Assembly (NCBI GenBank): GCA_000004695.1
Contig: CM000153.2
Location: 4,224,001 to 4,288,000, forward strand
Source: Dictyostelium discoideum
Lineage: Eukaryota
Direction of reading: 5' to 3'
DNA length: 64,000 nucleotides
The notes under the pieces are model-generated. The model did no database searches, was not told the DNA's origin, and saw nothing but the letters and a program-made list of their open reading frames with translations. Made by a program: the position numbers and the translations under genes. Below, piece by piece: positions 30,280-38,107 of this stretch (position 1 is the stretch's first letter; the number at the start of each line of letters is the position of its first letter).

Positions 30280-31550
30280 TTATAATTTATTTTCTAAAAA
30301 CTTTTTATAGAATAAATTACCCCTTGAAACTATATAAAATATTGGAATTTCAGGTATAATATAAGTTGGATGTGAAATAACCTTTGCAATATCAGTTGTA
30401 TGTTTAACTCTAATCCATTTCTTTTCAATTTCTTTAATCTTTATATCTGATAAAATTGGTTTAGTCCAATTTGTTTCAAAATAAACTTCAATACGATCCA
30501 TTGTATATTCTTTCTTTGTATCCCATGGTGCAAATTCTGGATTTTCTGGTGGAAACATCATTTGTAAATGATCACCAAATGTATGATCTTCTTGGAAATC
30601 CATAATAAAATCACTAAATTAAATCAATAAATAAATATTAATATAAAGTGATAATTTTAAAAATATCAATTAATATTTATTATTATTTACCTTTTACCAA
30701 ATTCAGGATATAAAAATACAACTGGAAAATGAACATCATTATTTTGATCAATTGTAACTTTTCTATCGGATTGATAAGTATATTGTGACATATCAAATAT
30801 TTGGTGACCTAATTTATATTTATTTTTTTCATAAAGTTTTGTAGCTAAAAGTTGTTGTTGTTGTTTTAATTGATTTTCTTTATCAATTTTATCTTGTTCA
30901 CGTTTTTTAATATCTTGTAATTTTTTATTAGCATTCTCTCTAATTGTTGATAAATCCTTATTGGTTGGTTCATGTGATAAACCTAAATCACAAGTTTTAA
31001 TTGAATCTTGGTATTTTGATAATTGTAATTGTGCTCTTGCCATACGACTATAGGCTTTCATATTCAATGGATTGAATTCGACTGAGACTGTACAATCTTT
31101 AATTACTAAACCATAATTTCCCAATTCCATATTGATTGCTGCTCTATTTGATAAATAGATTGAATTCTTTGTCATATCATTACACTTGACTGACAATGCT
31201 TTATTATAATAGTAAAGGGCATCATTGAAACGTGATTTACCCTCTCTAAAGTAATCATTACCTAAATTCTTAAAGGTTTCAGCTCTTTCCTCTGGTGTAC
31301 AATCATTTGAAAGTGATTGAAATGCTGCCAAATATTGATTTGATGATGGTTCTTCTGGTAATTCTTGCATGAAAATTGGTAAATCTTTCCAATCATTATC
31401 ATAGTCAATTGGTTTCTCACCTCTATCAATTAATTCTTGATTTGACTTTTTTCTTTCCTCTTTTTGTTGTTTCCATGCTATAACACTTCTTTCCCAAAGA
31501 ATATTTTCTTCTTCTTCTGTTAATCCTCCTGTTGCATCTGCTGTTGACAT
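30280..31550 (-). CDS. ttc4: TTC4 / Cns1-like TPR co-chaperone, about 397 aa. Exons: complement(30280..30613, 30691..31550).
   Basis: TPR region (AETFKNLGNDYFREGKSRFNDALYYYNKAL...). Donor AG|GTAAAT at 30690, phase 2. Acceptor tttag| at 30614. The C-terminal exon SDFIMDFQEDHTFGDHLQMMFPPENPEFAPWD...IEVYFE matches the TTC4/Cns1 C-terminal wheel domain (QDFIAAFHEDSRFIDHL...LEVYFE). Confidence 0.8.
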
Positions 31551-31663
31551 TTTTCTTTTTTTTTTTTTCTTAAGTTTTTATCTAAAAATGAAAAATAAAA
31601 AAATAAAAAATAAAACATTACAAAAACGAAAAATTCACTTTCATTTTTTTTTTATTTTAATTT

Positions 31664-31707
<44 letters not shown>

Positions 31708-31796
31708 TGAGATATAAATTTATTTATTTATTTATTGTAGATTCTAATTTGTTATTTTTCTTGATTATTTAAATGAACAACCTTCCATTTATTCTT

Positions 31797-32119
31797 TTAA
31801 CATTCATCGAAAGCTTTTTCTACGTCTTTTAAAAACTCATGATCTTCTTCATCATCAAGCTCTCCTTCACAATAAAGATAATAATTAATACCATTACATT
31901 CATCCTTTCTTTTTATTCCAATTTTAGCATCTTTAAAGTAGTTTGTGGCTATGGTAGTAAATCTCTTAATGTTTTTTCAACAATTTCAATCATCATTTTT
32001 TTGCAGTCATCAGTACATTCTTTTTTAATACCTGGGAACTTTTCGAGGTCCCCAGTTAAATCTTCATGTAATCCCCTGTTAAAATCAAACTTCTTTGAGC
32101 ATTCTTGGTGTTCACACAT
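31797..32119 (-). pseudogene. Small Cys-rich ORF split by a -1 frame change at an A6 (plus-strand T6) homopolymer. Either a frameshifted or pseudo gene, or a sequencing error. Unknown family.
   Basis: Minus-strand ATG at 32119 gives MCEHQECSKKFDFNRGLHEDLTGDLEKFPGIKKECTDDCKKMMIEIVEK, then a stop at 31949. A second frame continues ...NIKRFTTIATNYFKDAKIGIKRKDECNGINYYLYCEGELDDEEDHEFLKDVEKAFDEC* to 31797. One extra A in the run at plus 31972-31977 fuses them into a single 107-aa ORF. There is no GT..AG intron between the pieces. Confidence 0.3.
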
Positions 32120-32395
32120 TAAAATTTTTTTTAAAATGATTTTAAATACTAAAAACAGAGCACTCCAAAATGATATAAAATTAAATAAAATTTATTATTT
32201 TTGTTTTTTTTAACTTGAAAATGTTTTTACCAAAACAATTCGTTAGGTTTTTTTTTTTTTTGAAAAGATAGGAAATGTGAATATGTTTTTTAATTTTTAA
32301 TTTTAATTTATTTGTTATTTTTTTTGGAGTACAATTTTTTTATTTTTTTATTTTTTTTTTTTATTTTCTTTTTTTTTTAGATTATAAAAATATTT

Positions 32396-34939
32396 TTATA
32401 ATTCATTTTTAATACTTGCTAATTCATCTAAACCTAAACAAATATTCATATTTTGAAGTGCTTGAGTTGCAGCACCTTTTAATAAATTATCTAAAGTGGT
32501 TACGACAACTAAATGATTACCATTGACAGCAAAACCACCAATTGTAACAGTATGTTTACCACTATTTGATTTAACCTCTGGAATACCATCTTTATCGATT
32601 TTAATTAACGGTTCATTTTGATAGAATTTTTGATAACGTTCGACCACTTGTTCTTTGGTCATTGGATATTTGAGTTCCATTGAGATTGTAAGGGTAATAC
32701 CTTGAAAGAATTGACCAACATGTGGCATGAAATAGATTGGACTACCCAATTGATGACTAACCTCAAGTTCATGAGTATGTTGAACCAATTTGTAAGGTAA
32801 GATATTATCACTTAGACGTGTTGGATCATTCTTTTCAGATGGTTTACTACCAGCACCGGAATAACCTGAAATACCAAAACAAGATGGTGGTGTTACTAAA
32901 TCATTGACAAATGGCTTCAATGTTAAAAACATACCAGTTGCATAACAACCTGGATTGGCGATTAATTTGGATTCTTTAATTGCTGCACGATTGGTTTCTG
33001 GTTGACCATAGGTCCATTTTTCATTGAATCTATGATCGGAACTAAGATCTACCAACACTGGTGATTCACTTGAATTCTCCAAGGTTTGAATGTATGGTGA
33101 GGAAATTTTATCTGGTAAAGCCATGAACCAACCATCAATACCATGATCACGTGTGAAAATATCGATATTTTCTGGTTTAACATTATCGAATTTCAAATTT
33201 GATTTAAGTTGAGGGAATTCAGTTGTGATTGGTTTACCGAAATTGGTGGATGATGAAGCAATGGCCAACTCTAAATTTGGATGACCATCAATTAATCTAA
33301 CTAAATTACCACCAGTGAAACCTCTTGCACCAATTAAACCAACTCTAAATTTATGATTCTTATCTTGAAGTAATTTCTCTGATGCAGATTTTGATGAAGC
33401 AGCTTTGGTAATACCAGATAAATAGGTTGAACTTTGTGAAAGACATTCTTTAATTGAGTTTTCAATTTTGTTTGTATCAATATTTGTCCAAAATATATTA
33501 TTAGTGGCTCCAGTAATGAAACCTGTTGCAATCTTTTTAAACCATTCATTGTTGAGTTGATTATTTGATGATTCTTTCCAAATGTATGAAGAATTTTCAA
33601 ACATTTTTTTGAAAACACTTTCAGAATCTTCAGTGGATTGAATCGAATTATTAAAGAAAAAGAATTGATCAACATAGGAAACTGAAGAACCCGATGATAA
33701 TGGTCTAACTAAAATACCGGCAGTATAATGACTATTTACAAATGCTTTAACTACACCTTTGGAAAGATCGGTTTTCAATTGTTGATAATCGATTCTACCA
33801 CCTTTGGTACCAGTTGATTTTTCAATGAGAGCAAAGAATTTTGTTTCATCAAATGATGGTGATTCATGTGAATGCATAACTTCACCTCTTTCAACAGTGG
33901 TACCACTACCATCCTTTGCAAATAGCTCCTTCATTAATAAATCTGGACTTGTGATAGTGATCGAAGTTGATGGTGGTAATACATCAAGACAACTCTTAAA
34001 TTCCTTTAACTTTAATTTAGTTCCATGTTTAACCCATGGTTGTTTCATCAAGTCGGCATATTGTTCATCGAGTTTAATATGTTGCATAACTTTACCATCA
34101 CCATCTTTCATACCGGCTGTTGTATTAATGAATAGGATCTTCAATGGGTTAATGGATTTGGCCAATTCTAAAGCGGCTACATCTGCATTGATATTTAAAA
34201 CTTGACCCTCTGGTGTCATGGCTAAGGAACTAATCACTGGTACGTAGTCATTGGTGATACAAGATGCCAATGCGTCGGTATGAATCTTTGTTACATTACC
34301 AACGAAACCATATAATTTTGGATCCAACGGTGTGGCTTGGTAAACTCCTTGTGTTACTGGTCTTGCTTTGGTACCACTACTCTCCAATGCTTCAACAATC
34401 TTTAAATTCTCTCTTAAGAAAACACGTTGTGCAATTGCCAATACTGATGGTGGAGTAACACGTAAACCTTCTACATACTCTGCTGGTTCGCCTGCTGCTG
34501 CCAATTCTGCATTCAATTGTGGACCACCACCATGAACTACAATTGGAAATAATCCAATCTTTTTCAAGAAATTTAATGATCCTATTAATGAACTAATGTC
34601 CGATTCAATTACACCACCTCCGATCTTTACTAAAACGATTTGTTTTTGATCTTTAATCTTTACACTCTTTGAATAATCAACTGCTGTAGTATTGGTGCTT
34701 CCTGACTTTGATGTATTAAAATTAATAGTTGCAGATGATGAACTAACTTTGGTAACTGATGGTTTCTTACTAACAAATTCTTCAATCTTTTTAATTTGAC
34801 TATAAATTCCATTACCACTAGTAATTGATGTTGATGATGATGAATAATTAACAACTCTTTGATTGTTATTTTTACATTTTAATAATGTTGATTCATTTTT
34901 AATTACACTTTTAATTAATTTATTGGAATTTCTTAACAT
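32396..34939 (-). CDS. Bifunctional acetylglutamate kinase / N-acetyl-gamma-glutamyl-phosphate reductase (ArgB-ArgC fusion, ARG5,6-type), 847 aa, single exon, mitochondrial presequence
   Basis: Amino-acid-kinase domain (VLVKIGGGVIESD..., VVHGGGPQLN, NINADVAALELAK). The C-terminal AGPR domain has LIGARGFTGGNLVRLIDGHPNLEL, the catalytic NPGCYATG and HTHELEVSHQL. The N-terminal roughly 100 aa is S/T/N-rich. ATG confirmed at 34939. Confidence 0.9.
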   Translation of the reverse strand: MLRNSNKLIKSVIKNESTLLKCKNNNQRVVNYSSSSTSITSGNGIYSQIKKIEEFVSKKPSVTKVSSSSATINFNTSKSGSTNTTAVDYSKSVKIKDQKQIVLVKIGGGVIESDISSLIGSLNFLKKIGLFPIVVHGGGPQLNAELAAAGEPAEYVEGLRVTPPSVLAIAQRVFLRENLKIVEALESSGTKARPVTQGVYQATPLDPKLYGFVGNVTKIHTDALASCITNDYVPVISSLAMTPEGQVLNINADVAALELAKSINPLKILFINTTAGMKDGDGKVMQHIKLDEQYADLMKQPWVKHGTKLKLKEFKSCLDVLPPSTSITITSPDLLMKELFAKDGSGTTVERGEVMHSHESPSFDETKFFALIEKSTGTKGGRIDYQQLKTDLSKGVVKAFVNSHYTAGILVRPLSSGSSVSYVDQFFFFNNSIQSTEDSESVFKKMFENSSYIWKESSNNQLNNEWFKKIATGFITGATNNIFWTNIDTNKIENSIKECLSQSSTYLSGITKAASSKSASEKLLQDKNHKFRVGLIGARGFTGGNLVRLIDGHPNLELAIASSSTNFGKPITTEFPQLKSNLKFDNVKPENIDIFTRDHGIDGWFMALPDKISSPYIQTLENSSESPVLVDLSSDHRFNEKWTYGQPETNRAAIKESKLIANPGCYATGMFLTLKPFVNDLVTPPSCFGISGYSGAGSKPSEKNDPTRLSDNILPYKLVQHTHELEVSHQLGSPIYFMPHVGQFFQGITLTISMELKYPMTKEQVVERYQKFYQNEPLIKIDKDGIPEVKSNSGKHTVTIGGFAVNGNHLVVVTTLDNLLKGAATQALQNMNICLGLDELASIKNEL

Positions 34940-36841: not shown

Positions 36842-38107
36842 ATGGATATTGATAGTATTTCAAAATTAAAAGTTGCAGATTTAAAAAAAGAACTTGAAAA
36901 TAGATCAATTAAAACCAATGGAATGCTAAAGGCAGATTTGATTGATAAATTGAAAGAGGTTTTATTTAAAGAACAGCAATCACAAGAAATAAAATCTAAT
37001 ACAAATATAGAAAATCAATTAAACACAGATAAAGAAAAAGTCAATAGAGTCGATAAAGAAACCATTGGATCATTGGAAAGGGGAAAAGAAGAAAAAGAAA
37101 CATTAGAAAAAGAAGAAAAGGAAAGATCAGAAAAAGAAGAAAAAGAAAAATTAGAAAAAGAAAAATTAGAAAAAGAAAGATTAGAAAAAGAAAAGATAGA
37201 AAAAGAAAAGATAGAAAAAGAAAAGATAGAAAAAGAAAACCAGGAAAAACAAAAAAGAGAGGATAAAGAGATGGTAGAAAAAAAAGAAAACGAAGATTTA
37301 AATAAAAAAAGAAAAACTGAAAATGAAGTCAAGGATAGCAGCAGCAGCAATGAAAATATACAAACAAAAAAGAAAAGGATAGAGAATGAAAGTGATAATA
37401 AAATTAAAAATGAAAATACAAAACATGATGATACTATAATACCACCTCAATCATCATCTCTAAACAGTAGTAGTGGTAGTGGTAGTAGTGGTAGTAGTAG
37501 TAGTAATAATAGTAGTGATACAATTCTAATTAGTAAATTAGTTAGACCTTTTAGGGTGGACATGATCGAGACATTGATGAATGAATATGGAAGTGTTAAA
37601 AACTATTGGATGAACAGTGTGAAATCATTTTGTTTCGTTACTTACTCCACATCAGAGGAGGCGATAAAAGCAAGAAATTCTTTAAATGGATTGGTTTGGC
37701 CTCCTTTAAACAGATCAAAACTTATTGTTGAATTCTCCTCTGAATCTGAATCAAACAAAGCAAAGAATAGAGAGTTAGGAATATTATCTCAATCATTATC
37801 ATCATCCTCTTCTTCTTCTTCATCTTCTTCAAAACCAACATCAACATCAACACCAGTAAATACAACAACCACCCTTTCAAATTTATCGAAACAAACCAAA
37901 TTAAATAAAAATGATAATAATAATAATAATAACAATAATAAAAATATTGAAAATAAAAGTAATAAAAAAAATATTGATGAAAATTTTCGAAAAACAAAAA
38001 CCAATCCTCCAATTTATTGGTGTCCTTTAACTGATCAAGAGGTCGAAGAAAAGAGAATTTATATGAATAAAAGAAGATCTATGAATTTTAATCGCCCAAG
38101 ATATTAA
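36842..38107 (+). CDS. SAP-domain protein with a Glu/Lys-rich coiled region and an RRM-like C-terminal region (acinus/SAFB-like), 421 aa
   Basis: N-terminal SAP motif LKVADLKKELENRSIKTNGMLKADLIDKLKEV. (EKEK/LEKEK)n repeats. Then LVRPFRVDMIETLMNEYGSVKNYWMNSVKSFCFVTYSTSEEAIKARNSLNGLVWPP, which looks like an RRM. The Ser-rich and basic tail is consistent with a nuclear RNA-binding factor. Confidence 0.65.
   Translation: MDIDSISKLKVADLKKELENRSIKTNGMLKADLIDKLKEVLFKEQQSQEIKSNTNIENQLNTDKEKVNRVDKETIGSLERGKEEKETLEKEEKERSEKEEKEKLEKEKLEKERLEKEKIEKEKIEKEKIEKENQEKQKREDKEMVEKKENEDLNKKRKTENEVKDSSSSNENIQTKKKRIENESDNKIKNENTKHDDTIIPPQSSSLNSSSGSGSSGSSSSNNSSDTILISKLVRPFRVDMIETLMNEYGSVKNYWMNSVKSFCFVTYSTSEEAIKARNSLNGLVWPPLNRSKLIVEFSSESESNKAKNRELGILSQSLSSSSSSSSSSSKPTSTSTPVNTTTTLSNLSKQTKLNKNDNNNNNNNNKNIENKSNKKNIDENFRKTKTNPPIYWCPLTDQEVEEKRIYMNKRRSMNFNRPRY

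Follow-up and report, generated by a model that had tools for sequence, protein, structure and literature searches.

Two overlapping minus-strand reading frames lie in the spacer between argC and a TTC4/CNS1 homologue in the 64,000-nt stretch of Dictyostelium discoideum DNA analyzed here (hereafter, the window), and in AX4 the locus is annotated as DDB_G0286255. The question it raises is whether these frames make a protein, by way of an intron, a shifted frame or a base missed in sequencing, or whether they are what remains of a gene. A sequence-only reading of the window had proposed that the two frames belong to one small Cys-rich protein interrupted at an A6 run. The locus is very probably a non-functional duplicate (a pseudogene) of a member of an orphan, dictyostelid-restricted small-protein gene family, and the lesion that breaks its frame lies elsewhere.

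Reading frames and coding origin of the broken ORF

Both minus-strand frames were found as first described, and the 107-aa product quoted at that time is obtained when the A6 run is lengthened by one A. The frame-0 piece fits the family over residues 1-53, but has already left the family frame in its final three residues (LLP). In the -1 frame, 59 codons are open between a point shortly before the A6 run and a TAA at 31797-31799, and the two frames overlap by ~29 nt, so that a +1 insertion anywhere within the overlap would fuse them. By length alone, the broken ORF stands out only slightly from chance, since 92 of 2000 mononucleotide shuffles had at least 59 codons open in a row. The protein search that had been suggested for the fused product was run and matched D. 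discoideum proteins with E values from 6e-51 to 4e-24, and a profile search also produced matches in other dictyostelid genera. These strong homologues, together with a GC content of 31% in the broken-ORF segment compared to 11-13% in either flank (~22% for the whole window), indicate that the segment is real coding-derived sequence. The coordinates of the features discussed below are collected in Table 1.

Table 1 Features of the argC-TTC4 interval, in window coordinates
Feature	Position	Strand	Observation
Bifunctional argC	32396-34939	-	Protein identical to AX4 EAL64304
Native spacer upstream of the ATG	32120..32172	-	Paralogue homology ends ~11 nt upstream (about 32130)
Probable pseudogene relic, whole	31724..32119	-	Ancestral ATG to ancestral stop through four frame changes
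Frame-0 piece	31949..32119	-	ATG 32119, 56 codons (MCEHQ...EKTLRDLLP), premature TAG 31949-31951
In-frame 9-nt gap (3 codons) relative to paralogues	32099..32100	-	Alignment columns 94-102
Annotated 83-nt "intron" of DDB_G0286255	31949..32031	-	GTATTA...CCATAG; excision reproduces the 79-aa model (P0006) exactly
A6 run proposed earlier (plus-strand T6)	31972-31977	-	GTTGAAAAAACATT invariant in all five aligned sequences
First frame break	31959..31961	-	T3 here, T4 in all four paralogues: 1-nt deletion
Post-break piece in the ancestral frame	31797..31958	-	FTTIATNYF...DVEKA, then aberrant FDEC and stop
4-nt insertion (CTTT/TTCG; placement ambiguous by 1 nt)	31808..31812	-	Absent from four paralogues
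1-nt deletion in ancestral tail, GGAAAGG to GGAAGG	31783..31785 (~31784)	-	Paralogue alignment and wild-isolate remnants
2-nt deletion in ancestral tail	31755..31757 (~31756)	-	Paralogue alignment and wild-isolate remnants
3′ flank common to paralogues	31640..31723	-	AATAAATAAATAAATTTATA...; runs into A36 run at 31666-31701
TTC4/CNS1 homologue	30280-31550	-	One intron; protein identical to AX4 EAL64302
Bona fide intron of the TTC4/CNS1 homologue	30614-30690	-	77 nt, 7.8% GC, GTAAAT...TTTAG; spliced product is EAL64302

The longest ORF at the locus is an antisense one, starting from an ATG and spanning 31839-32213 on the plus strand (124 aa), with a low-complexity, I/F/L-rich translation. An exact-product look-up found this product on record in no assembly, and this ORF is most likely an artefact that mirrors the coding strand. 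The same look-up with the 79-aa model of DDB_G0286255 and with the 56-aa frame-0 ORF returned no independent contig.

The first frame break is a deletion in a T run

To place the frame break, the window copy was aligned at the DNA level with four intact paralogue loci taken from wild-isolate assemblies. The A6 run, to which the break had been attributed, is invariant in all four intact paralogues and is not the lesion. The frame is instead broken 11 nt downstream, after codon 53, where the window reads GAT-TTACT and each of the four paralogues reads GATTTTACT (alignment column 241). The ancestral junction is EKTLRD followed by FTTIATNYF and not EKNIKRFTT, and the fused protein quoted earlier is wrong at four residues, with NIKR where the family has TLRD. 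Window-specific peptide stretches include GLHEDLTGDLEK, and the ancestral frame continues after the break as FTTIATNYFK. The junction is read in a single frame, EKTL(R/G)DF(T/S)TIATNYF, in all 13 of the other family proteins that cover it, and relatives in other dictyostelid genera are likewise single-frame across it. The P. violaceum homologue (P0035) aligned to the intact paralogues as one HSP, and to the window as two matches in different frames, with the join at 31967-31973.

Frames that overlap, with a homopolymer inside the overlap, could also point to a full-length product made by programmed -1 ribosomal frameshifting, or by slippage during transcription, at the A6 or the T3 run. The likeness to programmed -1 frameshift sites is, however, superficial and goes no further than these two properties. 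Ahead of the frame-0 stop, no X_XXY_YYZ heptamer occurs in frame 0 within the overlap; the 91 nt that follow, where a stable stimulatory structure would be expected 5-9 nt downstream, form no more stable a fold than shuffled sequences (MFE -7.8 kcal/mol, z = 0.03); and an A6 run is a short one for slippage during transcription. Slippage at this run was rejected since the 0-frame TLRD that it would replace is the conserved family sequence. Every relative is encoded in one frame, and the site itself is deleted in other isolates. The probability that we give to a programmed event is close to nil. Of the causes originally offered for the break, recent pseudogenisation is supported by the four indels and by the decay of the locus in isolates, while programmed frameshifting, with neither slippery heptamer nor stimulatory structure nor conservation, is not.

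Further lesions and loss of a conserved C-terminal module

The defect is also not confined to a single nucleotide, as had been supposed. In a tblastn comparison, residues 1-134 of the intact paralogue P0001 were matched over window positions 32119-31727, and three more frame-breaking indels were found in this range (at 31808-31812, ~31784 and ~31756) besides an in-frame gap of three codons. The 4-nt insertion, which no intact paralogue carries, is also absent from the orthologous remnants of two wild isolates. The C-terminus AFDEC of the protein quoted earlier is a frameshift artefact of this insertion, and it displaces a module that is conserved across genera: at the position of AFDEC and its stop, the family sequence continues as AMNVKRINGKVVHLN..., and conservation of the C-terminal NVK..nG..vH segment extends to D. 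purpureum, Polysphondylium violaceum and Tieghemostelium lacteum. In the AlphaFold model of an intact member, this segment forms a confident beta-hairpin (pLDDT 87-93, residues 101-120). Because the insertion removes the conserved hairpin, repair of the T run alone would still leave a copy without that structural element. The window copy is similar to the family along its whole length, but it has neither the single uninterrupted frame of family members (~112-166 codons) nor an in-frame NVK..nG..vH hairpin.

The annotated intron of DDB_G0286255

The AX4 "hypothetical protein DDB_G0286255" (EAL64303, Q54M19) is a 79-aa model composed of the first 29 codons of the broken ORF in the window and its last 50, joined by excision of 83 nt between 32031 and 31949. 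If this intron were real, the locus would make the 79-aa protein, and the GT..AG boundaries, the restoration of the frame on removal of 83 nt and the current reference annotation all speak for that possibility. The composition of the segment speaks against it, as its GC content is 25% compared to 7.8% in the neighbouring TTC4 intron and its donor is GTATTA rather than the GTAAAT of that bona fide intron. Its DNA is 95-97% identical to intact-paralogue sequence that is annotated as exon, and the paralogue models read straight through it. Splicing would delete the family's best-conserved helix, which this segment encodes. No gene is called at this site in eight other assemblies, and the segment is deleted in wild isolates. 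We consider a genuine intron very improbable indeed, and the original statement that there is no intron here was probably right. The length of the "intron", 3n+2, is exactly what steps over a 1-nt deletion, and we infer that the 83-nt intron is a gene-prediction artefact bridging the frameshift. This is the pattern of mis-annotated pseudogenes, in which a disabled paralogue is restored to frame by a short GT..AG "intron" that has a length of 3n+2 and consists of parental coding sequence, and compared with other mis-annotated duplicated pseudogenes the window copy shows nothing unusual.

Tiny introns within the overlap of the two frames, 17-33 nt long, would be too short and were likewise rejected. 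A literature search on the three gene IDs (DDB_G0286255, DDB_G0284797 and DDB_G0268836) and UniProt IDs returned nothing.

The orthologous site in other isolates

The argC-TTC4 interval was followed through eight newer assemblies, namely D. discoideum ACTFIW, ACTFIR and ACTFIT, D. cf. discoideum ACTFIY and ACTFIZ, two of D. citrinum and one of D. dimigraforme. In cluster listings, the locus tags or accessions of ArgC and TTC4 follow one another directly in these assemblies, and no gene is called between the two in any of the eight. In ACTFIT, both neighbours are identical to their AX4 counterparts with no gene called between them, and the same pipeline called paralogues of at least 112 aa.

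The sequence of the spacer was compared in three isolates (ACTFIW, ACTFIR and ACTFIY). The spacer is 845 nt in the window compared to ~509 nt in ACTFIW and ACTFIR, which lack ~317 nt that take in the ATG as well as the A6 and T runs; what is left there is codons 97-134 only, all in a single frame, and none of the three tail indels seen in the window is present. In ACTFIY, the 469-nt spacer contained no detectable family sequence, as would be expected either of an empty site or of a complete deletion. Third-position divergence of ArgC from the window is ~4% for ACTFIW and ACTFIR and 5.5% for ACTFIY, indicating independent lineages with different outcomes of decay at the locus. The window thus holds a clear paralogue with disabling lesions in its ancestral frame, at a site where the copy is not conserved.

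These comparisons also bear on the chance that the first break is a sequencing or assembly error, in which case the true sequence would be T4 at 31959-31961 and the locus would encode an intact 107-aa protein (MCEHQ...EKTLRDFTTIATNYF...AFDEC). A 1-nt change in a short homopolymer, with the remaining ancestral frame still open, is in keeping with such an error. Against it, the reference model needs its 3n+2 "intron" exactly over the T-run site; no gene is called in ACTFIT between neighbours identical to those of AX4, despite the paralogue calls made by the same pipeline; and the locus is degraded or absent in the three isolates compared. The repaired product would still be without the conserved hairpin, owing to a 4-nt insertion that is not in a homopolymer, and the copy is also without the upstream region of the family. 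An error of this kind is very unlikely.

Flanking sequence and origin of the copy

The intact D. discoideum paralogues have 200-300 nt of upstream sequence in common, a region that the window copy does not have. Paralogue homology stops ~11 nt upstream of the ATG, indicating that no family promoter region was carried over, and a flank motif of the window, ATATCATTTTG..GTGCTCT.TTTTTA, also occurs in the spacer of an isolate without the copy (L011). On the 3′ side, the flank common to the paralogues is followed by a minus-strand A36 run (plus-strand T36), which is shorter and interrupted in wild isolates. This run could be the poly(A) remnant of a retroposition or a typical Dictyostelium intergenic run. 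The missing upstream region and an A36 run after the 3′ flank would suit retroposition, but A/T runs occur everywhere in this DNA. A target-site duplication was not recognised, and the parent gene models are without introns, so that intron loss gives no score for retroposition. The copy may have arisen either by DNA duplication or by retroposition.

The argC-TTC4 spacer contains a copy of the coding sequence and 3′ flank, essentially without the upstream region. In the AX4-type lineage, the T4 to T3 deletion breaks the frame after codon 53, and the 4-nt insertion exchanges the conserved C-terminal module for FDEC and a stop, with two tail indels and the three-codon gap besides; in other isolates, most or all of the copy is missing. 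On the favoured account, the locus would not be under selection and no functional family protein would be made from it, and the 79-aa model would have come from a gene predictor that got across the frameshift by means of a 3n+2 GT..AG "intron".

The relic might still be transcribed and have a secondary role, either through the 56-aa truncated peptide or as a regulatory or antisense RNA, and the intact ATG and first 53 codons as well as the youth of the copy would suit such a role. Weighing against it are the missing family promoter region, the deletion of the segment in two wild isolates and its absence from a third, an Rfam search that gave one chance match far below threshold, and the lack of any record of the 56-aa product in any assembly. 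A secondary role is for these reasons extremely doubtful.

A dictyostelid family of small proteins

The fused product matched nine protein clusters of the D. discoideum group. Intact family members are 124-134 aa long and read ...MMIEIVEKTLRDFTTIATNYFKDAKIGIKRKDEC...; the members include DDB_G0268836 and DDB_G0284797 of D. discoideum and 134-aa proteins of wild isolates such as KAM9973429.1, and the profile search added D. purpureum DICPUDRAFT_158329, P. violaceum CYY_009980 and T. lacteum DLAC_02224. Once repaired, the window copy is 79-88% identical in protein sequence to members of the D. discoideum group and 95-98% identical in DNA over the core, and it has the family motifs MC.H, FP.I..CT..CKK.M..IV, NYFKDAK.G and Y.LYC. 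It differs from the family in its four frame breaks, in having no in-frame C-terminal hairpin and in having no common upstream region.

The AlphaFold model of an intact member (pLDDT 79, pTM 0.70) consists of four to five helices followed by a packed beta-hairpin; an earlier structure prediction from 6 close sequences had a pLDDT of 54 and was unusable. A Pfam search with the family gave nothing above cut-off and only sub-threshold noise (DUF357, Spackle, Styelin), and neither a PDB relative nor a significant fold neighbour was found. Judged from these searches, the family is an orphan of small proteins (~134 aa), restricted to Dictyostelia and previously undescribed.

The dispersed paralogues (L001, L007 and L008) and the window copy are 94-99% identical over the central ~200 nt and 79-97% identical at the ends, a pattern compatible with gene conversion among the copies. 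Substitutions among the paralogues are evenly spread over the codon positions (~11:11:14), which suggests recent duplication or gene conversion and not strong purifying selection at that scale. The ten window-specific substitutions fall 1:3:6 by codon position, too few to gauge relaxed selection. The window copy has no excess of substitutions over the intact paralogues, and its decay is visible as indels only. As it is no more diverged than the paralogues are among themselves, the copy is either of recent origin or has been homogenised by gene conversion.

Two to three small genes are located ~3 kb downstream of an intact paralogue (L001 6910-7152 and 7501-7713; L002 6791-7063). They are distant family members with 27-38% identity, and their position indicates that the family also occurs in local tandem clusters. 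A 477-aa protein that clusters with the 134-aa proteins (P0028, ACTFIZ_001175) is probably a fused gene model. In the obsolete entry P0040 (UPI00004E4558, 93 aa), which is probably one more patched relic, a Cys/Gly-rich tail comes after the family core (MIDIVEKIFRDCTTMFTNYFKDAKIGIKRKD).

Condition of family members in AX4 and wild isolates

Among the matches, there was no canonical 134-aa member from AX4 or ACTFIT, while the wild D. discoideum isolates ACTFIW and ACTFIR have 3-4 such copies at dispersed loci. Each annotated member of the AX4/ACTFIT laboratory lineage (DDB_G0286255, DDB_G0284797 and DDB_G0268836) looks truncated, frame-shifted or patched. Besides the window copy, the AX4/ACTFIT members P0009 (DDB_G0284797), P0034 (DDB_G0268836), P0008 and P0005 also look degenerate or patched: DDB_G0284797 begins with MNAQRSLILTGD, which is a +1-frame reading of the family's ECSKKFDFNRG, and has internal gaps as well, and DDB_G0268836 ends prematurely (AMHKMER...).

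The DDB_G0286255 locus is very probably a young duplicated pseudogene relic, polymorphic among isolates and mis-annotated as a two-exon gene. It follows that DDB_G0286255 (UniProt Q54M19) should be flagged as a pseudogene and not as a 79-aa protein with an intron, and DDB_G0284797 probably needs the same annotation review. The locus illustrates neatly how a gene predictor can invent a 3n+2 intron to get past a frameshift, and its analysis delineates an orphan, Dictyostelia-restricted family with presence/absence and copy-number variation among D. discoideum isolates. Apart from this delineation and the annotation fix, the biology is ordinary and no new mechanism is implied. A reading of wider reach, which we think unlikely, is that the parent family is a fast-turnover, copy-number-variable and lineage-restricted one, or, in a weaker version, that the 79-aa or 56-aa product has gained a function. 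If the laboratory lineage is truly without an intact copy, the family might be dispensable and might form a conflict-type gene set, acting for example in social or kin interaction or in defence, and the DDB_G0286255 locus would then be a snapshot of its decay.

Variation in neighbouring genes

For the gene at 36842-38107 in the window, an exact-product look-up gave no match elsewhere. ArgC varies in length from 844 to 856 aa across isolates, with 12-24 gap columns in the coding alignment of the window with L009, L010 and L011; this suggests an in-frame repeat-length polymorphism in the N-terminal Ser/Asn-rich part. Four Logan contigs encode an identical ArgC; they are roughly 2.6 kb long and end at 32338-32350, inside the A-rich spacer. 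The sequencing runs from which such contigs derive include SRR24091725, SRR26869258, SRR26869266 and SRR26869267. At window position 34925 (argC codon 5, third position), the window has C and all four of these contigs have A, a synonymous difference, and the same contigs also differ from the window in the length of the A run upstream of argC (~34978).
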